DNA of 64,000 nucleotides. Source: Candidatus Saccharimonadales bacterium. Lineage in GTDB: Bacteria; Patescibacteriota; Saccharimonadia; UBA4664; SCTI01. The DNA is taken from positions 7-64,006 of the forward strand of contig DATIII010000002.1 of NCBI GenBank assembly GCA_035479795.1, in the 5' to 3' direction. The position numbers and the translations under genes are program-made. Under the pieces are notes generated by a model. It was not told where the DNA came from, ran no database searches, and saw only the letters and a program-made list of their open reading frames with translations. Below, one piece after another: positions 15,557 to 49,032 of the stretch (its first letter is position 1; each line of letters opens with the position of its first letter).

Positions 15557-15563
15557 CCCACCT

Positions 15564-15596
15564 GGATCCCGGATCCCGGATCCTGTATCCTGATTC
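15564..15596 (+). repeat. Heptad tandem repeat GGATCCC GGATCCC GGATCC TGTATCC TGATTC immediately upstream of the 15598 start
   Basis: Read directly from the sequence. It leaves no room for a Shine-Dalgarno site before ATG 15598. Confidence 0.7.
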
Positions 15597-15597
15597 T

Positions 15598-15933
15598 ATG
15601 AATGATTCCGCTTGGGAACGCCTAATTGATGCAGTTGATGCCACCTGCGGCATTGATAAACACAGTAAAAATATGCGGCCGCTGGATGACCGCCCCGACT
15701 TAAACGAAACCGTTGAAGTTTTTGAGTTCGAGCGCGGTGGCCAAGCTTACAAACTAGAGCGAGTCAGCGGCCCAGCTATTATTGACCGCAAAACCCACTT
15801 TACTCATCGCGCCGGGACGGCTAATCGCATCGAAAATATTTACGACGAACATGAACTGGGACATAAAGTCACCCTATATAAAAACGAGGCGGGGGACTGG
15901 CAGCCTCAAGATATGAGCGCCTTGTCGCTATGA
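15598..15933 (+). CDS. Hypothetical protein (111 aa)
   Basis: The ORF's stop overlaps the gltX ATG (ATGA), suggesting translational coupling. No family recognised. Confidence 0.45.
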   Translation: MNDSAWERLIDAVDATCGIDKHSKNMRPLDDRPDLNETVEVFEFERGGQAYKLERVSGPAIIDRKTHFTHRAGTANRIENIYDEHELGHKVTLYKNEAGDWQPQDMSALSL

Positions 15934-20925: not shown

Positions 20926-21873
20926 TTACTGGCCCTGGGCCAAGCGCAACCGCTTCACGTTGGCGCTGGCCTCGGCGGCCTGGGTAGAGGCCACTTCAGT
21001 CTCGTCGGCCTCGGTCATCCCGACACTGGTGGTGACCACCGGCGGGCCGAGCAAACTAGCCACCACGGCGGCCGGCGCGGTCAGCACCTTGTCATCGAGA
21101 AGTCCCACTCCCTTGTTCAGGGCGCAGGCACTGGCATCGGCCAGGGCCTCCCTGGATACGACGACCTCACCGTAACCAGTTGGCTGCTTGCACTTGAACC
21201 CAACGTCATCGACCCGAATCCCGGCAATTCCACCGATTTCCCGAGCCTTGGTAATGATGCGCTTGTCGAGCAACCCGCGGATCAACTGCCGGTAGGTGAT
21301 CTTGCCGGCGTCCGTCTGGATGACCTGAACGATGCCCTCGTAGAGGTAATCGCTCCAGCTCGACATTTCCAGCTGCTTCTTGGCGACGTCGACCACCTGG
21401 AAGTGGATGACGGGTGTGACCTTAAAGGCCACGCAGTCGCGGGTAACGATCTTGAGCTCTTGGCACTCGTGCTTCTGAGGCCGCATATCGGTGGGGGGCT
21501 GCTTGTGGATAAACGGCAGCTTGAACCACTGGCCGGCGGTCCGGATCATCAGCTGCTGCCGCCGGGCCGGGTCCCAGCCGATCGGGCAAGGCAGAATGAA
21601 CGGGCCGAAGGCGCGCAAGCCATACCGATCCCAGTACCACGTCCGCAGGTGGAGCGGCATGCCGAAACGGGTCATGACGGACTCGTGGCCGTAGGGCATG
21701 CGAAAACAGCTCTTCTTCCCATCGGCATCGTCCTTGGCCTTCTTGGCCGCAATGCCGAGAATTCCGCCGGTAGTGACACTACCCCCGACAAGTGAAGGAA
21801 CAATTGTTGCGAGACTGGGCATAAGCCCCCTCCATGGGACTCGAGATTTACAGGTAAAACGTACTCCTCGCAC
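20926..21873 (-). CDS. SPFH/band-7 (stomatin/prohibitin-like) domain membrane protein with an Ala/Val-rich C-terminal tail
   Basis: F.MPYGHESVMTRFG, WFKLPFI and QELKIVTRDCVAFKVTPVIHFQVVD match the SPFH N-terminal signature. The likely start is the internal Met MPSLATIV. Confidence 0.55.
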   Translation of the reverse strand: MRGVRFTCKSRVPWRGLMPSLATIVPSLVGGSVTTGGILGIAAKKAKDDADGKKSCFRMPYGHESVMTRFGMPLHLRTWYWDRYGLRAFGPFILPCPIGWDPARRQQLMIRTAGQWFKLPFIHKQPPTDMRPQKHECQELKIVTRDCVAFKVTPVIHFQVVDVAKKQLEMSSWSDYLYEGIVQVIQTDAGKITYRQLIRGLLDKRIITKAREIGGIAGIRVDDVGFKCKQPTGYGEVVVSREALADASACALNKGVGLLDDKVLTAPAAVVASLLGPPVVTTSVGMTEADETEVASTQAAEASANVKRLRLAQGQ

Positions 21874-28106: not shown

Positions 28107-28631
28107 ATGGAACGGGAGACCCTAGTGGCAAAGGTATTATTGGTAGAAGACGACTTTAGTTTGCGCGATATTTATAGTGCTCGTTTTCAAGCTGAGGGTT
28201 ACGCTGTGGTTACCGCTTCGGATGGCGAAGAAGCCCTGGCCGTAGCTGTACGTGAGCGCCCAGACCTGATCGTACTTGATGTTATGATGCCCAAAATCAG
28301 CGGCTTTGATGTGCTGGACATCCTCCGCTCGACGCCCGAAACTAAGGAAACCAAGGTTATTATGATGACCGCTCTGAGTCAAGATGCTGATCGCGAGCGG
28401 GGTGAATCGTTGGGAGTTAACAAATACTTGGTAAAGTCACAGGTGACCCTTGAGGACGTAGTAGTTGCTGTTAAGCAAGCCCTGGAGGGAGCCCCAGCTC
28501 CGGTTGCACCAGCCACCCCAGGTGCTGCTCCAGCCACACCTCAGCCACAGGCCGCCGCTCCACCAGCCGAAGCAACCACCCAAACGCTACCGCCCCCGCC
28601 AGCTGGCGAAGAGCCACCAGCGGCTACCTAA
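28107..28631 (+). CDS. Single-domain (CheY-like) response regulator with a Pro/Ala-rich C-terminal tail
   Basis: Receiver motifs LLVEDD and the phospho-acceptor D in LIVLDVMMP. No output domain. Confidence 0.75.
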   Translation: MERETLVAKVLLVEDDFSLRDIYSARFQAEGYAVVTASDGEEALAVAVRERPDLIVLDVMMPKISGFDVLDILRSTPETKETKVIMMTALSQDADRERGESLGVNKYLVKSQVTLEDVVVAVKQALEGAPAPVAPATPGAAPATPQPQAAAPPAEATTQTLPPPPAGEEPPAAT

Positions 28632-28642
28632 AGGCAGCGCAC

Positions 28643-29293
28643 ATGCGCATTAACCAATATATTGCCCGAGCCACGGGCATGTCGCGCCGCCAAGCCGACG
28701 AGATGGTAGCCGGTGGACGAGTAATGATTAACCATATCTCCGCAGCGGCCGGACAACAGGTGGCCGATGGCGACGTCGTAATGCTAGATGACAAAGCGCT
28801 ATCCATTACCGCCGATAGAACCATCATGATTAACAAACCGGTAGGCTACTTGGTTAGCCGTACCGCCCAGGGTGCGCCCACCATCTACGAGTTACTCCCT
28901 CCTGATATGGCTGGCTTAAAGCCAGCTGGCAGACTGGACAAGGATTCGTCTGGCTTACTGGTTATGAGTAATAATGGTCAAGTGATTCATAAATTTAGCC
29001 ACCCTTCTAAAAACCTGTGGAAGGTTTATCAAGTGACTCTAGACCGCCCTCTGAAACTTGACCACGCAAAACAGCTAGAAAAGGGCGTTAGCTTAGAAGA
29101 TGGGATAAGCCGATTACGGATTGAGATCCAGCCTAACCATTTAACCGTGCAATTGCAGGAAGGCCGCAATCGGCAGATCCGGCGAAGCTTTGCGGCACTC
29201 GGTTATGAGGTTAAGACTTTGCACCGCACAGCCATCGGCAATCTCAAGTTAGCAGACCTGGCTTCAGGCCGGTACCAGGAGATCAGGGCGTGA
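28643..29293 (+). CDS. RsuA/RluB-family pseudouridine synthase (S4 RNA-binding domain + catalytic domain)
   Basis: N-terminal S4 motif RINQYIARATGMSRRQADEMV and catalytic GRLDKDSSGLL. Confidence 0.8.
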   Translation: MRINQYIARATGMSRRQADEMVAGGRVMINHISAAAGQQVADGDVVMLDDKALSITADRTIMINKPVGYLVSRTAQGAPTIYELLPPDMAGLKPAGRLDKDSSGLLVMSNNGQVIHKFSHPSKNLWKVYQVTLDRPLKLDHAKQLEKGVSLEDGISRLRIEIQPNHLTVQLQEGRNRQIRRSFAALGYEVKTLHRTAIGNLKLADLASGRYQEIRA

Positions 29294-30198
29294 GCTGGAT
29301 AGCCACCTTATCGCTGGTTTTACTCAGCCTGCTCCCGTGGCAGCCAGCTGGATTAACCAAAACATTGGAGAGCTGGAGCATCGAGCCTGCTGGAGCCGAG
29401 GTAAATTTGAATCAAGCCCCTCCGCTACCAAAAGTCCAAATCCCGATCCGTCGTAGTAACCCGAATCTAAATCTGCAAGCTGCCAGCGCCTACGCTATTG
29501 ACGTAGAAACAGCTCAGCCACTTTACGAACAGAATGCTAACACCCAGCAACCGATCGCTTCGGTTACGAAACTGATCACGACCCTGGTGATTCTCCAGGA
29601 CCACCCGCTGTCAGATAAAATTACCGTTCCCACACTGCCAGCCTATACTCCGGCCGATGATCTGCTGGGCTTAACTCCAGGCGAGGTATTCAGCGTCAGT
29701 GATCTGCTGCAGGCAGCCTTGGTTCATTCGGCCAATGACGCCGCCGATGCCTTAGCAATTGCCGATAGCGGCTCACGCGAAGCCTTCGCCACCAAGATGA
29801 ACGCCTACGTCGCCAAATGGGGAATTGAAGGAACTCAGTTTTCTAATCCAACCGGGTTAACCGACGCTGGCAACAGCGCCACGGCTATGGCCCTGGGCAA
29901 ACTATCTCTTCTGGCACTGCAGCGGCCTGCCATTCGCCAATTTGGCAACCAAGGCGGGGGCGTGGTAGCTGATGCTGCGGGTCGTAAATTTGCGCTCCGA
30001 CCCACCGACGATTTATTGTCAACCGGCCGGTTTCATGGTATAAAAACAGGGTACACAGCTGCCGCCGGCGGCTGTTTTGTTGGGCTGACCACCATTAACG
30101 GACACGAGATTATTACTGTTGTTCTTGGCAGCCCCGACCGCTTCGGCGAAACCGTACAACTGGCTAATTGGATCCAAGCAAACTACATATGGCTGTAA
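29290..30198 (+). CDS. D-alanyl-D-alanine carboxypeptidase (PBP5/6, S11 peptidase family)
   Basis: SxxK as SVTK, SxN as SAND, KTG as KTGYT. Signal peptide. GTG start overlaps the upstream stop (GTGA). Confidence 0.8.
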   Translation: MSWIATLSLVLLSLLPWQPAGLTKTLESWSIEPAGAEVNLNQAPPLPKVQIPIRRSNPNLNLQAASAYAIDVETAQPLYEQNANTQQPIASVTKLITTLVILQDHPLSDKITVPTLPAYTPADDLLGLTPGEVFSVSDLLQAALVHSANDAADALAIADSGSREAFATKMNAYVAKWGIEGTQFSNPTGLTDAGNSATAMALGKLSLLALQRPAIRQFGNQGGGVVADAAGRKFALRPTDDLLSTGRFHGIKTGYTAAAGGCFVGLTTINGHEIITVVLGSPDRFGETVQLANWIQANYIWL

Positions 30199-31499
30199 CG
30201 CCCCTCATCGCAATCGTCGGCCGACCTAATGTCGGGAAATCAAGTCTGTTCAACAGGTTGGTTGGCGTGCGCCAAGCCATTACTCACGAAACTGCCGGCA
30301 CCACCCGCGATGCCAATTACGGGGCCCTAACCTGGAATAAGAAGCACTTTATCTTAGTCGATACCGCCGGCATCCACCGCGCCGATGGCGAATTAGACCT
30401 GGCCGTTCAAGACCAAGTGAAGGAAGTGGCCAAGCTAGCCGACATTATTGTAGTCGTCGTCGACGCCGGGAACATAATTACGGATGAAGACCGCGAAGCC
30501 GCTACCTTGGCTCTCAAAACCCGCAAACCAGTTATTTTAGTGACTAATAAGATAGATACGGTTCGGGCCGGTAAAGCCGATTCCTTTGAGCGACTGGGGG
30601 TAAAGGAAATAATCGAGACTTCGGCCATCCACGGCAGCGGATCTGGAGATTTACTAGACGCGGTCGCCAGCCAGATAGCCGAAGACACTGCGCCGGCTGA
30701 AAAAGAAGACGTAATCACCCTAGCTTTCCTCGGTCGTCCCAACGTCGGCAAATCCAGCCTATATAACTCACTGGTAGGGAAGCAACAAGCTATCGTTAGC
30801 CAGATCGCTGGCACCACGCGGGATATTGGCTCGACTGACCTGAAATATCATGGTCAAACCATTCGGCTTCTCGATACTGCCGGTTTGCGGCGGCGGGGCA
30901 AGATCGAAGCTGGGGTGGAGAAGTATTCCAGCCTGCGAACCTTGGCCGCCGTGGCGCAAGCCGACATTTGCGTAGTGGTTATTGATGCCACGGAGTTGAG
31001 CGTGGCCGGCGACCAACACATTGCCGGACTGGCTGCCGAGGCTGGCAAGGGAATAATTTTGGTGGTAAACAAATGGGACCTGATTGAGCGGGACGACAAA
31101 ACCCAGGCTCGCTACACCCGCCGGCTAGTTAGCGACTTTGCCTTCATCCACTGGGCCCCTTTGGTTTATACCTCGGCCATTCAGGGACTTAATGTTGCAC
31201 GGCTATTTGAGTTAACTCGTCAGATCGCCGAGACCCGTAGAATCACTATCCCAACCGGCAAACTCAATTCTTTGATTGAGAAAATGGTGGCCAAGCAGCC
31301 GCCGGCCGGCCTAAAAGGTCGGCAGCCCAAGATTAAATACGCCACCCAAACTGGTACCAACCCGCCAACTTTCAGAATTTTTGCCAGTTACCCCTCCTTA
31401 GTCCACTTTTCCTACCAGCGTTACTTAGAAAACGGCCTCCGCGACGCCTATGAGTTTATTGGAACGCCGATTAAACTAGAGTTTAAGGCCAAATCTTAA
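30189..31499 (+). CDS. der: Ribosome-associated GTPase Der/EngA (tandem GTPase domains + KH-like C-terminus)
   Basis: Two G1 motifs, GRPNVGKSS at residues 10 and 190, with DTAG after each. Start taken at the internal Met MAVTP. Confidence 0.9.
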   Translation: MAVTPLIAIVGRPNVGKSSLFNRLVGVRQAITHETAGTTRDANYGALTWNKKHFILVDTAGIHRADGELDLAVQDQVKEVAKLADIIVVVVDAGNIITDEDREAATLALKTRKPVILVTNKIDTVRAGKADSFERLGVKEIIETSAIHGSGSGDLLDAVASQIAEDTAPAEKEDVITLAFLGRPNVGKSSLYNSLVGKQQAIVSQIAGTTRDIGSTDLKYHGQTIRLLDTAGLRRRGKIEAGVEKYSSLRTLAAVAQADICVVVIDATELSVAGDQHIAGLAAEAGKGIILVVNKWDLIERDDKTQARYTRRLVSDFAFIHWAPLVYTSAIQGLNVARLFELTRQIAETRRITIPTGKLNSLIEKMVAKQPPAGLKGRQPKIKYATQTGTNPPTFRIFASYPSLVHFSYQRYLENGLRDAYEFIGTPIKLEFKAKS

Positions 31500-31631
31500 T
31501 ACTACGAAAGAATTTTTTATGTTAGTAGAGTTCAAGGAAGAAACGAGCAGGGCAAACGAGACGTACAAAACGTACGGCGAGTGCGCAGCGCAGCTTGTGA
31601 CGATGAAATGTGCTGACAGAGGAAATTCTCT

Positions 31632-32198
31632 ATGAAATTAATTATCGGACTCGGAAACGTCGGCAAACAATACCACGCAACCCGCCATAATCTGGGGTTT
31701 GCGGTTGTCGACGTGTTGGCCATTACTTTTGGCCAACCAGGAGGCTTCAAAAAGCATTCCAGGGCGGCGTCTGATATTTTAGACCTCAAAGCCAGCCACG
31801 GCTGCATTTTGGCCAAACCAACAACCATGATGAACCTTAGTGGCCAGGCGGTAGGGGAATTATTGCGCTTTTATAAGGTCGAACCTAAAGATGTTTGGGT
31901 TATTTACGATGATTTGGATCTGCAGTTCGGCCAAATGCGCGTGCGCGTAGGAGGCGGTAGCGCTGGGCATAATGGGGTAAAGTCCATTATTCAACACATC
32001 AGCGAAGACTTCTGGCGCGTGCGGCTAGGGATTCAGAATCAATACCTGGCCACCACTCCCACCGATAAGTTCGTATTAGATCCCTTCACAGCCGAAGAGG
32101 CCCCTAAAGTCCCTGCCATTGTCGAATCGGCTGCTAATGAAGTCGAATCCGCCTTACTCAAAGGTGAACTGACCGATCACACTCTTAACCTGATTTAG
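31632..32198 (+). CDS. pth: Peptidyl-tRNA hydrolase
   Basis: N-terminus MKLIIGLGNVGKQYHATRHNLGF and motif GHNGVKS. Confidence 0.9.
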   Translation: MKLIIGLGNVGKQYHATRHNLGFAVVDVLAITFGQPGGFKKHSRAASDILDLKASHGCILAKPTTMMNLSGQAVGELLRFYKVEPKDVWVIYDDLDLQFGQMRVRVGGGSAGHNGVKSIIQHISEDFWRVRLGIQNQYLATTPTDKFVLDPFTAEEAPKVPAIVESAANEVESALLKGELTDHTLNLI

Positions 32199-32203
32199 GC
32201 AAG

Positions 32204-32227
32204 AAAAAGCCCCACATAATGTGGGGC
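32204..32227 (-). terminator. Intrinsic terminator downstream of minus-strand gene 32269-32766
   Basis: 8-bp stem GCCCCACA/TGTGGGGC with loop TAA. On the minus strand it is followed by a U-run (A-run at 32204-32208 on plus). Confidence 0.55.
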
Positions 32228-32268
32228 GGGTGGGCGGCCACCGGTTTGCGACCGCCCCTGAACTGGTA

Positions 32269-32766
32269 CTACGAGCCGGGAGCCTCCTTGACGCTAGCAG
32301 GAACATCCTGAGGACTCTGGAAGGCCGGACCGTGAGTCGCCGCCCACCAGGTGCATCCACGAGGCCAGGGCTTGGGCCGCTTGCCCTCACGAACCTGGGT
32401 AACCAGGCGAGAGCACTTCTTGGCCGAAAGCCGGGTGATGGTTTCGCTGCCGCTGACGGCCGCGATCCGGCAATGCCTTGGCAGGCTACCCACGTCAAAC
32501 CCCGTTGCGGAGCTACCCAGAGGCTTTGCCTTCTTGCATGAGTCAAGGAAGGGGATGTCCCTCCTGAACTCAGCCACCTTGCTGCGCTGAACGCAGTAGA
32601 TCGTGTCATCGACCTGGATCGAGACACAGCCAGAGGCCGTTGTGGGTGCCTGTGCCGGCTGAGCTGCCGTCTGCCGATCAGAAGAACCACAGGCGGAGAC
32701 GAGGAGAGCGAGGACCAACCCCGCCATAATCGTCGTGAAACGAATGATGCGGGCGAAGTGGCCCAT
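32269..32766 (-). CDS. Cys-rich putative lipoprotein (165 aa), high-GC
   Basis: Signal peptide with lipobox LVSAC and 8 Cys residues. No family recognised. Consensus promoter upstream. Confidence 0.5.
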   Translation of the reverse strand: MGHFARIIRFTTIMAGLVLALLVSACGSSDRQTAAQPAQAPTTASGCVSIQVDDTIYCVQRSKVAEFRRDIPFLDSCKKAKPLGSSATGFDVGSLPRHCRIAAVSGSETITRLSAKKCSRLVTQVREGKRPKPWPRGCTWWAATHGPAFQSPQDVPASVKEAPGS

Positions 32767-32883
32767 GATTACCGTCCAAGGGTGAGTAGTGTTTTCAAAT
32801 TCCTGGACCAGGATGCGATTTGCTCGCTTCCTGGTTGAGAACCTGACCCTACAAAGTGCGTCTCACCTCTGAGATTGTTAACT

Positions 32884-32912
32884 ATAATAGCATAGTGGTT
32901 ACGTTTTGTCAA
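32884..32912 (-). promoter_or_regulatory. Consensus sigma70-type promoter cassette (TTGACA-17-TGcTATTAT) for 32269-32766
   Basis: Minus-strand -35 TTGACA (plus 32907-32912), 17-bp spacer, -10 TATTAT (plus 32884-32889) with TG at -15/-14. Confidence 0.6.
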
Positions 32913-32936
32913 GAAGATCCAATTTTCTAGACATGG

Positions 32937-32960
32937 AAAAGCCGGCCGCGAACGACCGGC
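32937..32960 (-). terminator. Intrinsic terminator downstream of minus-strand gene 32980-33528
   Basis: Stem GCCGG(32941-32945)/CCGGC(32956-32960). On the minus strand it is followed by UUUU. Confidence 0.5.
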
Positions 32961-32979
32961 TAAACCAGAACTTCAACTT

Positions 32980-33528
32980 CTACTTCTTGAGATGGCAACC
33001 TTTGGGCCGTACCACCTTGCCGACGTATGGCTTGTTCTTAGGAGTTGGGCGCATGTACTCGCGCCACTCCGAACACGTCAACTTCACGATGCGAACCGGG
33101 CCTTTCTTCATCGGATACGGGTTCGCCTTCTGCCGTAGCTCCGGGCAGTCCTCGTAGAGGTGGGGCGGGTCCGCCTCGGGGTTCTTCGGCACTGGAGATT
33201 CTTGCTCCTGCTCGTAGGCCTTGCAGTCGACCTTGGGCCGCTGCTTCGGGATCTTGCAGTAGTCGAACGGCTCACCATCGGGGCTGGTCTGACCATTGGG
33301 GTCTTCGGCCCCCAAGGGGCTGTTCGACTCGTAGCCGGGCTGCCTGCTGTAATACTGTTGATCCTTAACCCACCACTTGGGCGGATCGCACTTCTGGACG
33401 AAGGCCTGCGGCTCCGAGTAGTCGGGAAAATCCCGGTCGTACTGGATCTGCTGGCCAATGACCATGCCGACCAGGAGAGCAACAAGACCGCAAACGACAG
33501 CAGCCCAAACGACGTCGGACTTCTTCAT
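32980..33528 (-). CDS. Membrane-anchored Cys/Pro-rich secreted protein (182 aa), high-GC
   Basis: N-terminal transmembrane anchor. SD GGGAGGG. 8 Cys residues, Pro/Lys-rich. No family recognised. Confidence 0.5.
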   Translation of the reverse strand: MKKSDVVWAAVVCGLVALLVGMVIGQQIQYDRDFPDYSEPQAFVQKCDPPKWWVKDQQYYSRQPGYESNSPLGAEDPNGQTSPDGEPFDYCKIPKQRPKVDCKAYEQEQESPVPKNPEADPPHLYEDCPELRQKANPYPMKKGPVRIVKLTCSEWREYMRPTPKNKPYVGKVVRPKGCHLKK

Positions 33529-33591
33529 GACACCCTCCCGGGTAGTAGACAGATTGTGTATGTTCTGGACCGGTAAAAACCGATAAGTACT

Positions 33592-33620
33592 ATAATAGCA
33601 TTATTCTTATGTTTTGTCAA
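33592..33620 (-). promoter_or_regulatory. Consensus promoter cassette (TTGACA-17-TGcTATTAT) for 32980-33528
   Basis: Minus-strand -35 (plus 33615-33620), 17-bp spacer, -10 (plus 33592-33597). Near-identical to the cassette at 32884-32912. Confidence 0.6.
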
Positions 33621-34022
33621 TATATATGCAGGATAGGACTAGACTTAAATATCCTTCGACGTAGTTTGCCCTGAGCGAAGCCGAAGGGCTGAAGCCGAAG
33701 GGCTCAGGATGACAAATCCGACAAGTAGTCTAGATATAAATAAAACCCCATGCAAGGGACAGGGTGGCCTGCCACGGGCATCGGGTTTTATTGCACCCTC
33801 CAATACCTGCCCAGGGGCATTTTCGCGATCTGGCAAATGTGAGGAGATCGGGTATTCGAGGGACTGAACTACCTGCTGGCGAATCTAAAGGAGGGTGCAT
33901 TCAGACTCCCCTAGCAGGCAGGTCAGTAGGGTTTACTGGTTGAAAGTACCACCTCAAAAAGGTATGATTGGGATAGTAACATTAAATGTTATAAATGTCA
34001 ATCGAATTTATGTAAACTGACT

Positions 34023-34874
34023 GTGCAACCCTCTAAAATTACTTATGCTAATTCCCAATATCCAGATGCGCTTCGTGAGATAGCGGCGGCCCCGAAGCAG
34101 CTTTACGTACTGGGTGACTTGAAGGCCGGGCCGTTGGTCGCGGTTGTCGGGTCACGCCGCCCTACAGATTATGGCAAACAGGTGACCCATCAGTTGGCAA
34201 CCGACTTGGCCCGAGCCGGGGTGGGGATTGTATCTGGGCTGGCCCTGGGTATTGATACGATAGCTCATCAAGCGGCTGTGGAGGCCGGGGGTTATACCAT
34301 TGCCGTCCAAGGTAATGGGCTTGATAAGGTCTACCCTCATAGTAATCGCGGATTAGGCATTAAGATTCTTGAATCAGGCGGAGCCATTATTAGCGAATAC
34401 GACCCGGGTATGCCGGCTTTAAAACAGAACTTTCCAGCCCGCAACCGCATTATTTCGGGCTTAAGTTTGGCGGTGATTGTGACCGAAGCGGATGCCTCCA
34501 GCGGCTCGCTGATTACTGCCAATTTTGCGGTTCAGCAGAACCGGCAGGTTTTAGCAGTACCGGGCAACATTACCAGCCAGCGCTCGGCCGGACCAAATAA
34601 CCTGCTTAAACTCGGCGCCATACCAGTCACCAGCGCCAGCGATGTGCTGGCCGCGCTCGACCTGGAATCCCGGGCCTTAAAGGCTCGGCCAGCCATTGCA
34701 CAGAGTGCTGAGGAGGCCAAGTTACTCGAACTTATGGATACTGGCACCACCCAAAGCCAGCAACTGATTGAAGGCGCTGATATGACGGCAAGTCAGTTTG
34801 CCTACGTGATTAGCTTGATGGAGATCACCGGCAAGGTGCGCAACCTAGGCGCCGGTATTTGGGTGCGCCGCTAG
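34023..34874 (+). CDS. dprA: DNA processing protein A (DprA/Smf)
   Basis: Rossmann-like core VAVVGSRRPTDYG...GVGIVSGLALGIDTIAHQAAV. GTG start. Confidence 0.85.
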   Translation: MQPSKITYANSQYPDALREIAAAPKQLYVLGDLKAGPLVAVVGSRRPTDYGKQVTHQLATDLARAGVGIVSGLALGIDTIAHQAAVEAGGYTIAVQGNGLDKVYPHSNRGLGIKILESGGAIISEYDPGMPALKQNFPARNRIISGLSLAVIVTEADASSGSLITANFAVQQNRQVLAVPGNITSQRSAGPNNLLKLGAIPVTSASDVLAALDLESRALKARPAIAQSAEEAKLLELMDTGTTQSQQLIEGADMTASQFAYVISLMEITGKVRNLGAGIWVRR

Positions 34875-35882
34875 CTTCAGCCGCTCTTGGCTTATCGTAA
34901 TATCCAGACCAATATATAGCAGCAATTGGAAAACAAACACGGGAATATCGCGAAACTCGTGTAGATAAAAGCCCACGAATTGGACTACAAATAGGTTTAC
35001 CAGTACAGCCGATTTGAACATTTCCAAGGCGCTTAGCCGCATCACCGGGTTGCTCAGATTACGAGCTGCCCGAATCATGAGTAGCAAAGAGATCAACAAG
35101 GCTGTTAATTGGGCGTAACTAGCATAGGCCAAGTCAGCAGATAGCGGCTTTTCCCAACCCAAGCCGGGTGGCACTAAAGACCACGCGCTTAAGATCGCAA
35201 ACAGTGTGGCTTGGGCAATAAGAAAGAAGGAGATAGATCTGTTTACCGCTGGCTTGGCGGCTAGCTTGGTGTAGAAACGCAGCAGGCCGGCCTTGAACCG
35301 ACGCCAAGACAATTGGCGCCGGATTGGCAGAGGCTTTATATCGTCAATAATGCTCAGTAGCGCCTTGGCGGTGGGGTTATTGCCGGCCTTGAATAATAAG
35401 AACTCGGTGCGTTTTTTCTCGGCCTCATCCAAATCATTCAATACCACTTCTTCCATCTGATGCAAGGCATTTAGGAGGTACTCAGTAGACGAAAGCTCCT
35501 GGTTGCGTGCAATGCGGCGGAATAGGAAGAACAGGGCTAAAAATAAGGCATATAAAATAGCAGCTGTTGGCCGAAAAAAGTAATTGTTGTCGCGGGTTAT
35601 AAACTTGCCCAGCTCATCTATAAAGATGCCGAAACCAATCCCACCAAGGATAGCCGAAAGCCGCCGGGTGCGTTCGGTTAGGTAAATCAGCGTGAGCACA
35701 ATTGCGGCTGCCATAAGCAGTCCGCCATAAAGCATATGGGCAATATGCAGACGCCCACCTATCTGGGGATAGCCGGTTACGAAGAGGTAGAACCGCATTA
35801 ATAGTAGGCTAGCAATGGCCGTAACCATGAAGGTTTCTAGCAGTTCGCCAGCGTGAATATTGCGTTGTAACATGCGACTCAT
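34845..35882 (-). CDS. Hypothetical polytopic membrane protein (345 aa)
   Basis: About 8 transmembrane helices. Overlaps the dprA 3' end by 30 nt. No family recognised. Confidence 0.45.
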   Translation of the reverse strand: MSRMLQRNIHAGELLETFMVTAIASLLLMRFYLFVTGYPQIGGRLHIAHMLYGGLLMAAAIVLTLIYLTERTRRLSAILGGIGFGIFIDELGKFITRDNNYFFRPTAAILYALFLALFFLFRRIARNQELSSTEYLLNALHQMEEVVLNDLDEAEKKRTEFLLFKAGNNPTAKALLSIIDDIKPLPIRRQLSWRRFKAGLLRFYTKLAAKPAVNRSISFFLIAQATLFAILSAWSLVPPGLGWEKPLSADLAYASYAQLTALLISLLLMIRAARNLSNPVMRLSALEMFKSAVLVNLFVVQFVGFYLHEFRDIPVFVFQLLLYIGLDITISQERLKLAAHPNTGA

Positions 35883-35950
35883 GCTTATATCCTAGCTGTC
35901 ATCTCGAGCCCAGTCGAGAGATCTATTTGAAAGATGTCTCGAATACCTCG

Positions 35951-35994
35951 ACATGACAATAAAAAAGCCCCGGAGGGACCCCGCACCTGGTGAG
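35951..35994 (-). terminator. GC-rich hairpin plus U-run downstream of gene 36021-36533
   Basis: 10-bp stem CCCCGCACCT(35969-35978)/AGGTGCGGGG(35985-35994). The U-run is 12 nt beyond the stem on the minus strand. Confidence 0.4.
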
Positions 35995-36020
35995 AGGTGC
36001 GGGGTATCGCGGGGGTGTGG

Positions 36021-36533
36021 CTAGAGGACCTCACCTTCGAGGTATTTCCAGCCGGGGCGCCGCTCCTTGCAGGCCTGAATCGGCCGTAAGGCTGCGTCGG
36101 TGCGGAGGTGGATGACATGGTCGACCACCCTGCAGAAGACCCACCAGTCGGACTCCTCCTTGAGTCCCGATGCACCACCGGTGTAGTCCCGGTAGGTGCC
36201 AGCGCCAGCCCAGGGGAAGTCCCCAGGCTCGACCAGATCGGGTCGGAGCGCCGCCTCGGAGGATGGGAGGCCGGTGCGAAGAACGAACCTGAGCTTGTGG
36301 TCGACGTTGTCGGTCAGACCCTCCTCCGCGCTGATTCGGGTCTCGTCGCCAACGCTCACGAAGTAGAGGCCGGTGGAGCAGGGATCCGAAGGATCCGGCA
36401 CCCTTGCCGGGTCCAAGATCACCACAGAGACTTCCACATCGTCGCCGTACTTCTGTTGAAGGTTCGGGACCATCACTTGATGGAACCAAGTATCCAGCTG
36501 CCGCTGGATGAGGAGGCCGAATCGCTCGGACAC
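36021..36533 (-). CDS. Hypothetical protein (170 aa), high-GC, cytoplasmic
   Basis: GTG start with SD AAAGGAA. Chosen over two overlapping Arg/Gly-rich frames. No family recognised. Confidence 0.45.
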   Translation of the reverse strand: MSERFGLLIQRQLDTWFHQVMVPNLQQKYGDDVEVSVVILDPARVPDPSDPCSTGLYFVSVGDETRISAEEGLTDNVDHKLRFVLRTGLPSSEAALRPDLVEPGDFPWAGAGTYRDYTGGASGLKEESDWWVFCRVVDHVIHLRTDAALRPIQACKERRPGWKYLEGEVL

Positions 36534-36580
36534 GGGTTTCCTTTCGTAGTAGGGGCTACCTCAAAAAAGGCATGAGTACT

Positions 36581-36609
36581 AGAATAGCATAAGAAGCTTA
36601 TTTTGTCAA
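36581..36609 (-). promoter_or_regulatory. Consensus promoter cassette (TTGACA-17-TGcTATTCT) for 36021-36533
   Basis: Minus-strand -35 (plus 36604-36609), 17-bp spacer, -10 (plus 36581-36586). Confidence 0.55.
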
Positions 36610-36632
36610 GATTCTAACAGATGGGATATAAT
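36603..36632 (+). promoter_or_regulatory. Divergent plus-strand promoter TTGTCA-18-TATAAT for the dihydrouridine synthase gene, sharing its -35 region with the minus-strand cassette
   Basis: TTGTCA at 36603-36608, TATAAT at 36627-36632 overlapping the ORF-track ATG. The first ATG after it is 36643. Confidence 0.45.
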
Positions 36633-36642
36633 GCTGTTTAAG

Positions 36643-37653
36643 ATGAAAAACTTCTGGAAAGACCTACCAAAGCCGTTCTTTTGCCTCGCCCCCCTTGATG
36701 ACGTCTCCGACACCGTCTTTCGCGAGGTGGTTATCCGCGCCTGCCTGTCCGGTAGGCAGGCTGGCGCGCCGAACGCCGTGTTTACCGAGTTTGCGAATAC
36801 CGATGGCTACTTACACCCAAAGGGTCGTATTAGCGTTCAGCGAAAGCTAGATGTGAATGACAGTGAACGAGAGCTGGGTGTGCCGTTAATTGCCCAGATA
36901 TGGGGCGCTAATCCAGATCATTACTACCAAACTGCCAAAGAGCTGGCGTCTACCGGAATGTATGCCGGAATTGATATAAATATGGGCTGTCCAGAAAAGG
37001 GCATTGTTAAGCGTGGCTGCTGCGGGGGGCTGATTAAAGAAGAGAATTGGGATAACGCCGCCGCCATTATCCAGGCTGTCAAAAAGGGCGGCGACGATCT
37101 GCCGGTCAGTGTTAAAACCCGGATTGGGGTTAATAAGATTATTACTGAGGATTGGATCAGTCATATCCTCAAGCAAGATATTGCCCTCTTAACCGTGCAC
37201 GGTCGCACAGTGAAGGAAATGAGCAAAGTACCGGCCCACTGGGAAGAGATCGGCAAAGCCGTGAAGCTACGGGACCAGATTGCACCGCACACGCTAATTG
37301 TTGGCAATGGCGACGTGGAGTCGCGTGAGCAAGGGGAGGAACTGGCTGCCAAATACGGCTTGGATGGCATTATGATCGGCCGCGGCGTGTTTCATAACCT
37401 GTTTGTCTTTAATAAGGAGCAAACCGATCACACACCTGAGGAGATGCTAAAAATCCTCCTTAACCATGTTGATCTGTATGGGCGCACCTGGGGGAGCGAT
37501 AAGAGCTACCAGCCGCTCAAGAAGTTCTTCAAAATCTACGTTTCCGGTTTTCCGAATGCGGCGGAACTGCGCGCCCAGCTGATGGGGACTAAGACTCCAG
37601 ACGAAGCCCGCGAGATCGTTAATTCTTATCTGAAACAACCTATAACTGCATAA
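36643..37653 (+). CDS. tRNA-dihydrouridine synthase (Dus family, TIM barrel)
   Basis: FCLAPLDDVSD, NMGCPEKGIVKRGCCGGL and VSVKTRIG motifs. Start moved to ATG 36643 because the -10 box overlaps the upstream ATG. Confidence 0.8.
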   Translation: MKNFWKDLPKPFFCLAPLDDVSDTVFREVVIRACLSGRQAGAPNAVFTEFANTDGYLHPKGRISVQRKLDVNDSERELGVPLIAQIWGANPDHYYQTAKELASTGMYAGIDINMGCPEKGIVKRGCCGGLIKEENWDNAAAIIQAVKKGGDDLPVSVKTRIGVNKIITEDWISHILKQDIALLTVHGRTVKEMSKVPAHWEEIGKAVKLRDQIAPHTLIVGNGDVESREQGEELAAKYGLDGIMIGRGVFHNLFVFNKEQTDHTPEEMLKILLNHVDLYGRTWGSDKSYQPLKKFFKIYVSGFPNAAELRAQLMGTKTPDEAREIVNSYLKQPITA

Positions 37654-37686
37654 CAAAACGCTCCCGGTAAAGGGAGCGTTTTGCGT

Positions 37687-38232
37687 TTACAACAGGCCTA
37701 ATTTACGGGCACAGGCAGGCCACGGGCGCCAGCCGCGAACGGCTTGGTCGGCGTGGGCCTTAGTATCCTGGACCTCGGCCGGGGCTAAGTCCGGACGGGC
37801 ATAGCCACCGTAGTTGTTCCAGGTACCCAGACTGTACTGGTAGGCGCCGAAGTAACCGTTACCCGAGTTACGGGTGTAGGTACTACCGGACTCACACAGA
37901 CGAATCTGGTAAAAGGCATCATCGCCAGCCGGGGCAACTACCTTAGTGGTAGCAACCTTAACAGCGGCGCGGCGGGCGGCCAATTTGGCAGCCTTAGTAG
38001 CCTCTTGCTTGGCCTTCAGCGGGGCAATCACGTCGGTATCGAAGTTAGGCTTCGGAGCGACGACAACTGTCACCGGTTGGACCTGTAGGGTATCGAGTTT
38101 GATCTCGTAAGGTGCGGGGGTCTCAACACTGGCCTGAGCCGTTGCTGAGGCGGTTATCAGACCGGTAAACGGGCTGATGACCTGGGCCGTTAGTGACAGA
38201 TGTGCCACCAACGTATGTAGATAGTTACGCAT
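37687..38232 (-). CDS. Secreted Rpf-like (resuscitation-promoting-factor / transglycosylase-like domain) protein
   Basis: C-terminus CESGSTYTRNSGNGYFGAYQYSLGTWNNYGG...AEVQDTKAH...WRPWPACA matches the Rpf domain pattern (CESGGNW..NTGNGYYGGLQ...TW...GG...WP.C). Start taken at ATG 38232 because the ORF-track ATG lies inside the promoter spacer. Signal peptide follows. Confidence 0.65.
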   Translation of the reverse strand: MRNYLHTLVAHLSLTAQVISPFTGLITASATAQASVETPAPYEIKLDTLQVQPVTVVVAPKPNFDTDVIAPLKAKQEATKAAKLAARRAAVKVATTKVVAPAGDDAFYQIRLCESGSTYTRNSGNGYFGAYQYSLGTWNNYGGYARPDLAPAEVQDTKAHADQAVRGWRPWPACARKLGLL

Positions 38233-38290
38233 AGCGCAGTTCGTAAAACGAGCTGTGATACGTCCTTTCTGGTTAGTGGTGCTGCCCAAT

Positions 38291-38320
38291 AAAAAGGACC
38301 TCGCATTGAGGTCTTTTATC
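38291..38320 (-). terminator. Intrinsic-terminator-like hairpin + U5 in the 5' leader of the Rpf-like gene
   Basis: 7-bp stem GGACCTC/GAGGTCT. On the minus strand it is followed by UUUUUAUU. It lies between the -10 at 38332-38337 and the start codon at 38232. Confidence 0.5.
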
Positions 38321-38331
38321 GAACGCGGAAT

Positions 38332-38360
38332 ATAATAAACCATAAGTGGTATTTTGTCAA
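38332..38360 (-). promoter_or_regulatory. Consensus promoter cassette (TTGACA-17-TATTAT) for the Rpf-like gene
   Basis: Minus-strand -35 (plus 38355-38360), 17-bp spacer, -10 (plus 38332-38337). Confidence 0.55.
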
Positions 38361-38461
38361 TACTTAACAGGTGGCTAGGTTTTCCCTACATCTGTAGAAT
38401 CAACTTAAGCATTCTCTCAGGTCATAGGGCTAGGCTATGATCAGTAAAAGGAATTACACCT

Positions 38462-38974
38462 ATGAAAGTTCGTAAATCATTAATTGTGGCCTGTGCGGCG
38501 GGTAGCCTTGGTCTGGCCAGTGTAGGCGCACTGGCTGCCACTAGCACAAACTCTTCCGGCAGTTTAGTGGATGATGTAACCAACCATTTCCATCTAAACA
38601 AATCAGAGGTCCAGCAGGTATTTGATAATCATCGAAAAACCGAGAAGGCCAATCACGAGCAGAAATATGAAGATAGGCTAAACCAGGCCGTCAAGGATGG
38701 CAAGCTGACATCGGATCAGAAAGATAAAATTCTGGCCAAGCACAAAGAGATGATCAGCTTTATGGAGTCACTAAAGGATAAGACGCCACAAGAGCGCCAC
38801 GACGCTATGAAGACTAAGATGGACGAGCTAAAAACCTGGGAGAAAGATAATAACATCCCAGTGGGTTACCTGGGCGGACCGGGAATGGGGCATCATGGTT
38901 TCGGACACGGGCCGAAAGGTGATGGACCAGGTGAGGGGATAGGCATGCGCATGATGGACGGCGAGCCTCGATAA
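38462..38974 (+). CDS. Secreted LTxxQ-motif (Spy/CpxP-like) protein with a His/Gly-rich C-terminal tail
   Basis: Signal peptide. Helical, charged core with LTSDQKDKI. C-terminus GGPGMGHHGFGHGPKGDGPGEG suggests metal binding. Confidence 0.4.
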   Translation: MKVRKSLIVACAAGSLGLASVGALAATSTNSSGSLVDDVTNHFHLNKSEVQQVFDNHRKTEKANHEQKYEDRLNQAVKDGKLTSDQKDKILAKHKEMISFMESLKDKTPQERHDAMKTKMDELKTWEKDNNIPVGYLGGPGMGHHGFGHGPKGDGPGEGIGMRMMDGEPR

Positions 38975-38998
38975 ATATAATAAATAAAGACTTGTCTC

Positions 38999-39028
38999 GG
39001 AGGCCGGCGATATTGCCGGCCTCCTTTT
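38999..39028 (+). terminator. Intrinsic terminator (10-bp GC stem + TTTT), usable by both convergent genes
   Basis: GGAGGCCGGC(38999-39008)/GCCGGCCTCC(39015-39024), then TTTTGG. A/T-rich on the other side as well. Confidence 0.6.
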
Positions 39029-39035
39029 GGTATGA

Positions 39036-39533
39036 CTAGCTGCCCCAGCAGGTCTGGCAACCACCCCAGTCACGCCTGGTTAGCCCATCGCTACGAAAAG
39101 CAGATACGGCCGGAGGCGATACCGCACTCTCAGGCGGCGGCACAGCCCACATCTCCGGATCGAACTTGATGCCGTGGTCCTGCATGAACGCGACGGTCGA
39201 CGTCACGTCGCGAGCCGTTATCTGCGCAGACGGGTCATCGTTAGGCTCATGGTGAATGAACCGTCGAGCCACCTGGTGGAAGAACACGGTGTAGTTGGTG
39301 GTGTAAAGCAAAAAGGCGTGCCAGCCGATGTCAATCTTCCCGGATGGTGTAAAGGCCTCGTCGGGATGATCGCCACACAGCTTGAGGAAGCCGAGAGTGG
39401 CGTCCATGATCCGTTCGGCCTCCCTGACGCTGGTTCCGTGATCTTTACAGATCCGACCGGTCAGTCGCAGCCAGAGGATGGAGTCGATCAGGTCCCGATA
39501 AAGGAACTGTCGAGGTTCGGCGCGAGTGGGCAT
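39036..39533 (-). CDS. Hypothetical protein (165 aa), high-GC
   Basis: Contains IDIGWHAFLLYTTNYTVFFHQVARRFIHHEP, which has a weak resemblance to the glycine-rich-domain / DUF1399-like WH...L..Y...HH.P pattern. Consensus promoter upstream. Confidence 0.45.
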   Translation of the reverse strand: MPTRAEPRQFLYRDLIDSILWLRLTGRICKDHGTSVREAERIMDATLGFLKLCGDHPDEAFTPSGKIDIGWHAFLLYTTNYTVFFHQVARRFIHHEPNDDPSAQITARDVTSTVAFMQDHGIKFDPEMWAVPPPESAVSPPAVSAFRSDGLTRRDWGGCQTCWGS

Positions 39534-39567
39534 AACAACTCACTTTCGTCGTTTGATGCGCGACAAA

Positions 39568-39596
39568 TTTATACCACTATGTACCCAAGGCGTCAA
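39568..39596 (-). promoter_or_regulatory. Promoter cassette (TTGACG-17-TGgTATAAA) for 39036-39533
   Basis: Minus-strand -35 (plus 39591-39596), 17-bp spacer, extended -10 (plus 39568-39573). Confidence 0.5.
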
Positions 39597-47962: not shown

Positions 47963-47991
47963 TTGACACCTTTTGGGACATATTTTATAAT
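47963..47991 (+). promoter_or_regulatory. Perfect consensus sigma70 promoter TTGACA-17-TATAAT giving an essentially leaderless GTG start at 48001
   Basis: TTGACA at 47963-47968, TATAAT at 47986-47991. Preceded by the palindrome AATCCtGGATT (47911-47921) and three AAATCC repeats (47932-47958). Confidence 0.6.
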
Positions 47992-48000
47992 GTATCTAAC

Positions 48001-49032
48001 GTGGAAACCGATACACTCACAGCCGGGAAGGCAATTGATTATCGAAAAACCGCCGAGGCTATCCTCAGCGTCCTCAAGCAGGAACGCGATCGCGAGATAG
48101 TAGCCCGGCGTTTTGGGCTGGGAATTGACCGCCGCCACACTCTCGAGAAGATTGGTCAAGCCTTCGGTATTACCAGAGAACGAGTCCGTCAGATTGAAAA
48201 ATCGGCGACCGCCAAACTGATGGCTAGCCAGCACCAGCATATTAAGGACGTGGATGCCATTCTTAGTCAGCACCTGGCTCGAGTCGGGCACATTGCCCCC
48301 TTACGCGAGGTCACCGAGGCCATTGGAGCCAAAACTCCAGCCGAACGAGCCTATGTGACCTTCCTAGCCACTCTGGCGCCGTCGATCGAGGTAATTGATG
48401 AAAATGATTACTTCCATGCAGCCATCGCCAGTCTTCCCCAGTTTGACCGTATGAAGCTGTCCATCGCCACTAGTAAAATTAAGGCCCAGCTCGACAAACA
48501 TGGTCAGCCGGAAAGCCTGGCCCGGCTACATAAACTAACAACTCCTGATCTGCCCCGAGAATCAGTCGAAAACATTGCCAAGATTTCGAAGACGCTGGCT
48601 GAGCTTGATGGGAAGTGGGGACTGGTTCATTGGCCTCAAGTTAATCCTCGGTCAATTCGCGACAAGACCTTCTTGATTTTAAACAAGCATAATCAGCCCA
48701 TGCACTTCACCGACATTGCCGGCCGCATTACTGATCTGGGACAGCGCCGGCGCGAAGTAACTGTTCAGGCGGTTCACAACGAACTAATCAAAGACCCTCG
48801 GTTTGTACTGGTAGGGCGGGGGATTTATGCCCTCAGCGACTGGGGCTACACTCCCGGAACTGTGGCCGACATTATCACCGAAGTCCTGAAGCAGCAGTCA
48901 CCATTACATAAAGATGAGATCGTAAAACGAGTGCTGCAGAAGCGCCAGGTGAAAACCACCACCATCGTCTTAAACTTACAAGAAAAAGACCAGTTTGTGC
49001 GGGTGGCGAAGGCTACCTACGGTTTGAGGTAA
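48001..49032 (+). CDS. DNA-binding protein with an N-terminal sigma-70 region-4-like HTH and a C-terminal HARE-HTH / RpoE-delta-like winged helix
   Basis: EIVARRFGL...TLEKIGQAFGITRERVRQIEKSA matches sigma70 region 4. C-terminus FVLVGRGIYALSDWGY matches the HARE-HTH signature. Confidence 0.6.
   Translation: METDTLTAGKAIDYRKTAEAILSVLKQERDREIVARRFGLGIDRRHTLEKIGQAFGITRERVRQIEKSATAKLMASQHQHIKDVDAILSQHLARVGHIAPLREVTEAIGAKTPAERAYVTFLATLAPSIEVIDENDYFHAAIASLPQFDRMKLSIATSKIKAQLDKHGQPESLARLHKLTTPDLPRESVENIAKISKTLAELDGKWGLVHWPQVNPRSIRDKTFLILNKHNQPMHFTDIAGRITDLGQRRREVTVQAVHNELIKDPRFVLVGRGIYALSDWGYTPGTVADIITEVLKQQSPLHKDEIVKRVLQKRQVKTTTIVLNLQEKDQFVRVAKATYGLR

Follow-up and report, generated by a model that had tools for sequence, protein, structure and literature searches.

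In a metagenome-assembled genome (MAG) of a Candidatus Saccharimonadales bacterium, a member of the soil Saccharibacteria, we examined a cluster of promoter-like sites, designated P1 to P6, together with the genes and the small RNA (sRNA) that follow them. The sites lie on the minus strand of a 64-kb stretch of contig DATIII010000002.1, which in its whole length is referred to here as the window (GC content 51.6%). The window is matched by contig CAZQMU010000001.1 of MAG GCA_964594805.1, and the NCBI record of the orfC protein names a Candidatus Saccharimonadales bacterium. A previous inspection of the letters, hereafter the sequence-only reading, had described five near-identical promoter cassettes, each driving a high-GC orphan gene with its own terminator, set as cargo between housekeeping genes. 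The housekeeping neighbours that it named are confirmed by Pfam, which identifies Der, Pth, DprA, Dus, Ku and LigD in the window. The features of the region are listed in Table 1.

A conserved backbone of the order rluB-dac-der-pth-(gap)-dprA-(gap)-dus-(gap)-topA is kept in ten Saccharimonadales relatives, with gaps that measure from 0 to ~7 kb. The synteny set consisted of 76 Dus-anchored loci of other Patescibacteria, which are given L numbers below where they need to be told apart. The units considered here, acquired or native, are on the minus strand and oppose the mostly plus-strand housekeeping genes. Contigs from Logan, independent assemblies of two sequencing runs, share 99.8-100% identity with the window, one covering 28.3-37.2 kb and the other 34.8-39.5 kb. 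The strain variability suggested for the modules is thus not borne out by these contigs, and the gene variation that we describe is variation between species or genera. Two assemblies of the population (window 28286-37244 and L002) differ only by a single ~14-nt indel, for which a tandem CCCTTCGGCTTCAG repeat within an element at 33655-33725 is a candidate position.

Table 1. Features of the examined region, in window coordinates (aa, amino acids; GC3, GC content at third codon positions).
Feature	Position	Strand	Description
Terminator-like hairpin after orfA	32209-32227	-	Hairpin and T-run; terminator scan
orfA	32269-32766	-	165 aa; lipoprotein-like N-terminus (LLVSAC lipobox, read from sequence); GC 0.62, GC3 0.72
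P1	32912-32884	-	TTGACA, 17-bp spacer ending TATGC, TATTAT, TGc; ~110 nt upstream of orfA; repeat family D1
Terminator hairpin after orfB	32936-32961	-	Hairpin and UUUU; -20.8 kcal/mol
orfB	32980-33528	-	182 aa; N-terminal membrane helix (read from sequence); Cys- and Pro-rich; GC3 0.79
P2	33620-33592	-	TTGACA, 17-bp spacer ending TAATGC, TATTAT, TGc; ~57 nt upstream of orfB
sRNA	33729-33966	-	~235 nt, structured, conserved; terminator at 33765-33745; nhmmer and alignment
P6	34001-33973	-	TTGACA, 17-bp spacer ending AATGT, TACTAT, TGt; putative sRNA promoter
Terminator-like hairpin after orfC	35964-35982	-	Hairpin and T-run; terminator scan
orfC	36021-36533	-	170 aa, cytoplasmic; GC3 0.79; small conserved family
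P3	36609-36581	-	TTGACA, 17-bp spacer ending TTATGC, TATTCT, TGc; ~41 nt upstream of orfC
dus promoter-like site	36603-36632	+	TTGTCA-18-TATAAT; -35 overlaps that of P3
Hairpin common to convergent dus and Rpf-like genes	37653-37684		-22.5 kcal/mol
Rpf-like secreted protein gene	37687-38232	-	PF06737 transglycosylase-like domain; GC3 0.60
Conserved 5' leader of Rpf-like gene	38233-38325	-	Terminator-like hairpin and U-run
P4	38360-38332	-	TTGACA, 17-bp spacer, TATTAT, no TGn (GTT instead); putative promoter of Rpf-like gene
Hairpin between orfE and convergent orf170	38999-39024		-24.4 kcal/mol; U-run on plus strand only
orfE	39036-39533	-	165 aa; PF27765 (UCP032817-like); GC3 0.71
P5	39596-39568	-	TTGACG, 17-bp spacer, TATAAA, TGg; weak promoter-like site before orfE

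Promoter-like sites and the resemblance among P1, P2 and P3

Motif scans recovered all five cassettes of the sequence-only reading (P1 to P5) at the positions and on the strand that it had given, but a sixth, P6, had been overlooked. The sites follow the sigma-70/sigmaA-type consensus. Their -35 hexamer is a perfect TTGACA in P1-P4 and P6 and TTGACG in P5, and their -10 has the form TAnnnT in P1-P4 and P6. A perfect or near-perfect -35 and a spacer of exactly 17 bp hold throughout, as had been proposed, and the extended -10 is present in P1, P2, P3 and P5 but not in P4, which has no TG; with P6 included, five of the six sites carry TGn. P5 stands apart from the rest, as its -10 lacks the near-invariant last T. 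It is not listed by a consensus scan and matches any other site at only 14-20 of 49 positions (all 49-nt comparisons are counted from the -35), which is background similarity, so that its membership of the cassette family is not upheld.

The strict pattern TTGACA-N17-TAnnnT was searched for in the entire window, inside and outside the region. It occurs six times in the 64 kb, and five of these occurrences fall within 5.5 kb (32.9-38.4 kb) on one strand, a clustering that is not due to chance. Neither the remaining ~58 kb of the window nor 15.6 kb of the contig next to it holds another cassette of this type (79.6 kb searched altogether). A generic promoter scan of the 10-kb stretch around the sites returned 9 sites against 7.7 in shuffled sequence, and hence no excess. 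The only other perfect TTGACA-17-TATAAT of the window (47963-49032, plus strand) precedes the gene of a 343-aa protein with sigma-70 region 4 and HARE-HTH domains, and this promoter is conserved in L010 and L013.

The divergent dus promoter that had been said to share a hexamer with P3 is present as a consensus match. Its -10, TATAAT, overlaps the annotated ATG of dus at 36631, and Dus homologues align only from residue 5-7; on both grounds, the dus start is probably the ATG at 36643, which would leave a leader of a few nucleotides.

In an unguided repeat search of 31.5-40 kb, the cassette emerged as the top and largest direct-repeat family, 32 nt in length, in which P2, P3 and P4 are 84%, 69% and 63% identical to P1. 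An additional repeat of 49 nt with 71% identity connects P2 and P3. The motif common to P1-P3 appears to be TTGACAAAA...TATGCTATTnTAGT. Shared flanks had been noted for these three sites, and realignment bears this out. Over the 32 positions that the search pattern leaves free (the spacer, the inner -10 bases and 12 nt downstream), P1 and P2 match at 19, P2 and P3 at 19, and P1 and P3 at 16, against a clade mean of 10. This mean (10.0, sd 3.3) derives from 3,110 different-locus pairs among a clade set of 80 TTGACA-17-TAnnnT sites from the window and related loci, 74 of them outside the window; 2.2% of the pairs reach 19, true orthologues included. When six sites at a time were drawn in simulation from the position-specific frequencies of the 74 non-window sites, a triangle of at least 16, 19 and 19 arose with P ~1.5e-4. 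The resemblance among P1-P3 exceeds the general promoter consensus of the lineage. The clade-wide promoter matrix has an A/T-rich proximal spacer and T-G/A-T-G ahead of the -10, whereas a TATT-type -10 and an AGT discriminator do not characterise the other 35 clade sites. P1 and P2 also have 12 of 17 spacer bases in common (hand count), and P2 and P3 have AGTACTYAT in common.

The resemblance does not extend to the genes. The P1-orfA and P2-orfB units can be aligned as DNA only from about -36 to +3, the similarity ending at the promoter edges, and the proteins are not homologous (orfA against orfB, BLASTP E = 0.76; orfC unrelated to both). Tandem duplication of whole units of ~708 bp each, for which P1-orfA and P2-orfB were candidates, is ruled out by this short alignment and by the unrelated proteins. 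The proposed duplication of a promoter module is thus statistically supported for P1-P3 by the repeats and the simulation, but the module measures merely ~32-49 bp. From these comparisons, it appears that P1-P3 were copied or derived from one another.

The small RNA and the Rpf-like gene

The sRNA downstream of P6 was found by nhmmer in 14 sequences, namely the window and 13 related Saccharimonadia loci, and it lies between pth and dprA wherever both flanking genes were mapped. The alignment shows invariant blocks and a terminator, with compensatory changes in 18 of 42 predicted pairs, and the loops include an invariant, anti-Shine-Dalgarno-like AUGCACCCUCCUU and a C-rich terminator loop, GACCACCC. 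The sRNA matches no Rfam family: only two tRNAs in the window pass the gathering thresholds, and relaxed searches gave chance-level hits only (GadY, E = 0.5) or none. Orthologues of P6 were found in L010, L011, L014, L015, L018-L020, L025 and L027-L029, and at least ten relatives have kept P6 in register with the sRNA after it, as they have P4 with the RNA that follows it, which gives these two sites, and no others, indirect support as promoters. To judge from this conservation, P6 is the ancestral native promoter of a conserved sRNA and not part of any cargo.

P3 shows a further likeness to the sRNA promoters. Over 49 nt it matches those of the two closest relatives at 30 (L010) and 32 (L011) positions and the window's own P6 at 29, compared with 34-36 for true sRNA-promoter orthologues among themselves. 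The L010 promoter and P3 have TAT.CT..TACTCATGCC in common, spanning the -10 and the discriminator and reaching into the first transcribed bases, with the 10-nt TACTCATGCC identical in both, and the L011 promoter, like that of L010, matches P3 in these three parts. The likeness is suggestive, though not conclusive, of P3 being a partial copy of the sRNA promoter. A longer similarity between P3 and the sRNA, interrupted by an internal deletion, was also considered and received no support from MAFFT.

P4 is conserved together with its gene. Ten relatives have TTGAC-17-TAnnnT at the equivalent position, then a conserved leader of ~95 nt, then a gene starting ATG CGT AAC, and eleven relatives retain the N-terminal ~72 aa of the Rpf-like protein at the syntenic site. 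The protein has a signal-peptide-like N-terminus and matches PF06737 with 58 bits (cutoff 27; E = 1.2e-15); with the NCBIfam equivalogs it scores 51 against a cutoff of 180 for Rpf and 48 against 200 for RpfC. The sequence-only reading had placed this gene amongst the high-GC orphan cargo, a description contradicted by its near-native GC3 and by the conservation of gene, promoter and leader in relatives. As far as orthology can tell, P4 and the Rpf-like gene are an ancestral, conserved native unit rather than cargo.

The leader of the Rpf-like gene is conserved in eleven genomes. Just past the predicted start it has the hairpin and U-run (-14.7 kcal/mol, z = -3.9). Further features are a conserved GAAAGGUAUAU box and a helix in which GUAU is paired to the start codon, and the leader may act as an attenuator or a translational switch. 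It has no match in Rfam and is not a ydaO-type riboswitch. Apart from this leader, only P2 is followed by a 5' hairpin that rises above background (z = -2.3). A stabilising 5' hairpin as a common part of the cassette was considered and rejected, since the hairpins that follow P1, P3 and P6 do not surpass those of shuffled sequence (z -0.7 to +0.2).

GC-rich genes in the backbone gaps

The genes orfA, orfB, orfC and orfE are distinct in composition, with GC of 0.60-0.63 and GC3 of 0.71-0.79 compared with a native GC3 of 0.53-0.59 (window GC 0.516); the gene for ribosomal protein L27 has a GC3 of 0.59. They are also absent from the syntenic pth-dprA-dus-topA locus in all ten relatives that retain it. 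The description as cargo between housekeeping genes is therefore sound for these four GC3 outliers, but it fails for the Rpf-like gene.

The four genes differ in how far they can be traced. The only real match to orfA among 1.84 billion representatives is orfA itself, and it has no Pfam, NCBIfam, PHROG or PADLOC match; for orfB, the single match among 5.8 billion clusters is again itself. The earlier statement that every gene is a high-GC orphan applies to these two only, since orfC and orfE belong to families. The family of orfC has 17 members and is well conserved, and its named members are from Saccharimonadales or Saccharimonas. In the Saccharibacteria loci L006, L008 and L009, orfC homologues stand in unrelated contexts and are GC-richer than their surroundings in each case; they have TTGAC-type promoters of their own, with promoter and leader unlike those of P3 beyond the hexamers. 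A homologue with 34% identity is compositionally native (GC3 0.95) in Actinomycetota-like contigs of 74% GC, where the best matches of a neighbouring gene are from Nonomuraea and Streptomyces. The protein has no Pfam sequence match. Its AlphaFold model has a predicted local distance difference test score (pLDDT) of 88, and the best Foldseek matches in the PDB are 4clc, 4nkp, 3fpv and 9jth (E = 5e-4 to 1e-2, template modelling score ~0.5), with HbpS, Ybr137w, NahX and EfgA forming the GlcG/HbpS-like (DUF336) comparison set. On the strength of this model, orfC probably encodes a cytoplasmic, ligand-binding protein with a GlcG/HbpS-like fold and not an obvious effector.

The relatives of orfE found here are mostly from Streptomyces, Nonomuraea and Rhodococcus plasmids (37-47% identity), and PF27765 was found here mainly in Actinomycetota. 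Its model is mediocre (pLDDT 69) and without a PDB match from which a function could be read, and no signal peptide was found. A secreted or effector-like nature, as had been suggested for the cargo, thus agrees with orfA (lipobox) and orfB (membrane helix) only, as orfC is cytoplasmic and orfE has no signal peptide. Terminators of their own, also claimed for every gene, follow orfA, orfB and orfC; the Rpf-like gene and orfE instead have hairpins in common with the convergent dus and orf170, that of orfE without a minus-strand U-run. An origin in phages or defence systems was considered for the four genes and rejected, as no significant PHROG or PADLOC family and no relatives in 2.9 million viral contigs were found. 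The same applies to a plasmid origin of orfC, for which neither the window copy nor the copy from the 74%-GC contigs gave a tblastn match.

Similar islets occur elsewhere. Three more single-gene GC3 outliers, all on the minus strand, were observed in the window, at 3289-3591 (0.77; behind TTGACA-18-TATTTT and with its own terminator), 20926-21822 (0.78; weakly Band_7/SPFH-like) and 182-1333 (0.68; AGOG-like), so GC-rich islets are found genome-wide and are not special to this region. In the equivalent backbone gaps, L010 carries GC-rich orphan genes that are unrelated to those of the window (15312-16010, minus strand; 9400-9909, plus strand). One of them (GC3 0.87) lies behind TTGACA-16-TATTGT preceded by TTATGC, which is P1-P3-like, and has a leader of ~170 nt. 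In L009 (4430-6606), three GC3-outlier genes including an orfC homologue lie beside ku/ligD, which are genes of end-joining repair, as orfE does in the window. With the window included, GC3 outliers are associated with perfect promoters (odds ratio 12.7, p = 1e-4).

Small palindromes belonging to a GTCATCCTGAGC / GTCATCTCGAGC type were also observed. One, at 33655-33725, lies between the sRNA terminator and P2, and an inverted pair, at 35898-35957, has the orfC terminator on one side and the neighbouring gene on the other; elements like these are also present in L041 and L072, loci of other bacteria of the Candidate Phyla Radiation (CPR). They are perhaps insertion scars or miniature inverted-repeat transposable elements. 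The two tRNAs of the window, at 8.6 and 25.7 kb, are distant from the region, and the repeat search gave no flanking direct repeats beyond the promoter family.

Origin of the units and comparison with known systems

The explanation that we favour, with confidence that is evenly balanced, is that horizontally acquired genes are expressed here from locally reused strong promoters. The gaps of the conserved backbone would hold self-contained, minus-strand, single-gene transcription units. Two of these appear ancestral, one in which P6 would drive the sRNA and one in which P4 would drive the secreted Rpf-like gene via its conserved leader. The genes behind P1, P2 and P3 would have been acquired by horizontal transfer after the split from the sampled relatives, and orfE, behind the weaker P5, likewise; with Dus of the closest relative, L010, only 69% identical, the timing is coarse. 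GC-rich foreign genes would have entered a few permissive gaps, and the donor pool of orfC and orfE probably includes GC-rich Actinomycetota, the phylum to which the hosts known for cultivated Saccharibacteria belong. Because GC-rich foreign DNA rarely has AT-rich promoter hexamers, the acquired genes would be expressed from short native promoter segments (~32-49 bp). P1-P3 would have been copied or derived from one another and from the sRNA promoter already present, a local reuse of promoters, and each unit would be insulated by a hairpin terminator. What the sequences show are the motifs and their clustering, the excess similarity among P1-P3, the evidence of composition and synteny that points to acquisition, and the conservation of P4 and P6; that the sites fire, that they are strong, how they were copied and which donors contributed are what we infer.

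Several observations weigh against this explanation. The copies, all very short, do not reach the formal threshold for putative mobile promoters, which asks for promoter regions that align over at least 50 nt at a minimum of 80% identity, with coding sequences around them that are not homologous (PMC3488235); the best pairs here are 32 nt at 84% (P1/P2) and 49 nt at 71% (P2/P3). With copies so short, homology is not cleanly separable from selection on the bases contacted by RNA polymerase. The spacers of P3 and the sRNA promoter are dissimilar (7/17, hand count), and the window's own P6 is no closer to P3 than the L010 and L011 versions. No target-site duplications, integrase, transposase or adjoining tRNA were found near the inserts. 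Neither orfA nor orfB has homologues that could point to a donor. The GC3 of the acquired genes is below that of the orfC homologues in the 74%-GC contigs (0.91-0.95) and equals that of the GC-rich Saccharimonadales L020 and L025 (0.77-0.78). The link of GC3 outliers to perfect promoters is not significant outside this genome (relatives alone, 2/9 against 11/268, p = 0.06), and we do not put it forward as a clade-wide rule.

The main rival, possible though doubtful in our view, is convergence, in which P1-P3 evolved independently to the same optimal sigmaA promoter of the lineage and no DNA was duplicated. That optimum would consist of TTGACA, an A-rich proximal spacer, a TRTGn -16/extended -10 element, a TATTAT-like -10 and a preferred discriminator. 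Convergence would agree with a similarity that is limited to the polymerase-contacted stretch (~-36 to +3 for P1/P2), with copies that fall short of 50 nt and 80%, with the A/T-rich proximal spacer and T-G/A-T-G of clade-wide promoters, and with the promoter of the unrelated GC-rich L010 gene, where TTGACA-16-TATTGT after TTATGC is much like P1-P3. Yet a null built on the clade's position-specific frequencies produces the three-way similarity only at the low probability given above, the TATT-type -10 and AGT discriminator are foreign to the other 35 clade sites, and P1 and P2 agree at 12 of 17 bases of a spacer that is weakly constrained. The P2/P3 similarity moreover extends into transcribed sequence (49 nt), and the motif was not met with anywhere else in the 79.6 kb searched.

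It is unlikely that whole promoter-gene-terminator modules, promoters included, came ready-made from a GC-richer Saccharibacterium by natural transformation. The genome does encode DprA, the GC3 of L020 and L025 is like that of the cargo, and the named, closer orfC homologues are from Saccharimonadales or Saccharimonas, each with its own TTGAC-type promoter. However, in L006, L008 and L009 these promoters and leaders differ from P3 beyond the hexamers, which argues that promoter and gene were not inherited together, and the orfC homologue is GC-richer than its Saccharibacteria host in every case examined. Foreign modules would also leave the mutual similarity of promoters on three unrelated genes unexplained, together with the match of P3 to the lineage of the resident sRNA promoter. 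That the GC-rich genes are native, with a high GC3 from codon selection in very highly expressed genes, is very improbable and largely refuted. They do have consensus promoters upstream and their GC enrichment is strongest at third codon positions, but equally good promoters precede genes of ordinary GC3 (0.60 for the Rpf-like gene, 0.57 for that at 48001-49032), the L27 gene is also ordinary (0.59), the four genes are missing from all syntenic relatives, and two of the four have no homologue in 15 billion proteins. Least credible of all is an assembly or binning chimera, with GC-rich fragments of another organism mis-joined, for which the origin of the sequence from a MAG and its sharp GC shifts could speak. 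The junctions recur at 99.8-100% in the independent Logan assemblies of two runs, whose matches over 28.3-39.5 kb indicate that the arrangement is not chimeric, and each GC-rich open reading frame is framed in the correct orientation by AT-rich promoter and terminator signals.

A bolder form of the explanation by acquisition and promoter reuse, which we think unlikely, is that Saccharibacteria routinely domesticate GC-rich genes of their Actinomycetota hosts by grafting in front of each a ~30-50-bp copy of a resident strong promoter, here that of the sRNA, which had not been described before. If true, there would be a dedicated "promoter grafting" route for the expression of xenologues in an ultra-small epibiont, with insulated promoter-gene-terminator units lodged in a small number of permissive backbone gaps close to dprA and ku/ligD. 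The grafted genes might, in addition, be regulated by the sRNA nearby; the ribosome-binding site of orfB, GGGAGGGUG, is complementary to the invariant loop of the sRNA (read from sequence).

The region may be of interest as a clean new example in a poorly studied phylum, as Saccharibacteria, like other CPR bacteria, are difficult to study, and a full-text literature search found no experimental work on Saccharibacteria promoters. It offers a concrete case of how GC-rich foreign genes, possibly host-derived, could become expressed in a reduced genome of lower GC, and of a possible way for a tiny parasitic bacterium to turn on foreign genes. It also adds two conserved non-coding elements outside Rfam, the sRNA and the leader of a cell-wall-hydrolase-like gene. 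The compact, probably strong native promoter and terminator parts could serve in genetic tools for Saccharibacteria.

Compared with known systems, the promoters are, by their sequence, ordinary sigmaA-type promoters of extended -10 form and nothing categorically new, since promoter reuse, consensus promoters and gene islets are all known kinds. Voskuil and Chambliss reportedly described the "-16 region" (TRTGn) sigmaA promoters of Gram-positive bacteria in 1998. P1-P3 are like these in having TTGACA, a 17-bp spacer and T-A/G-T-G-n before TAnnnT, which accounts for the common TATGC TATTAT block, but leaves the spacer, the TATT-type -10 and the discriminator bases of P1-P3 unaccounted for.

The sRNA and the Rpf-like protein have parallels of their own. 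RsaE and RoxS are regulatory sRNAs with C-rich loops, and the P6 transcript resembles them in standing alone with its own promoter and terminator and in having invariant C-rich loops (CACCCUCC, CCACCC), for which Shine-Dalgarno sequences could be pairing partners. It has no sequence or Rfam relationship to them, however, and the likeness is one of analogy only. The Rpf-like protein shares with the Rpf proteins of Actinomycetota a PF06737 domain behind a signal-peptide-like N-terminus. It differs from them in scoring far under the NCBIfam Rpf and RpfC cutoffs, and the part conserved across Saccharimonadales is the N-terminal ~72 aa and not the catalytic domain.

Mobile promoters are similar non-coding promoter segments found before non-homologous genes in one genome, with a proposed role in activating genes that are silent or were recently acquired; where a family is small, with two or three copies, the authors invoke occasional recombination and not transposition (Matus-Garcia, Nijveen and van Passel, 2012; PMC3488235, PMC3575422). 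P1-P3 are likewise similar segments with non-homologous genes behind them, although they are shorter, more diverged and without the termini of mobile elements, and one putative source here is an sRNA promoter. Integron cassettes are promoterless, carry attC sites and go with an intI integrase; to judge by layout, the units described here are unlike them in having promoters and intrinsic terminators of their own. With genomic islets, the acquired units have in common the deviation in GC and GC3, absence in syntenic relatives, orphan or patchily distributed genes, and the reuse of backbone gaps in different lineages. They differ in being single genes with their own consensus promoter and terminator and without an integrase, tRNA or direct repeat, and in being GC-rich in a host of moderate GC, which is the reverse of the usual AT-rich islands.

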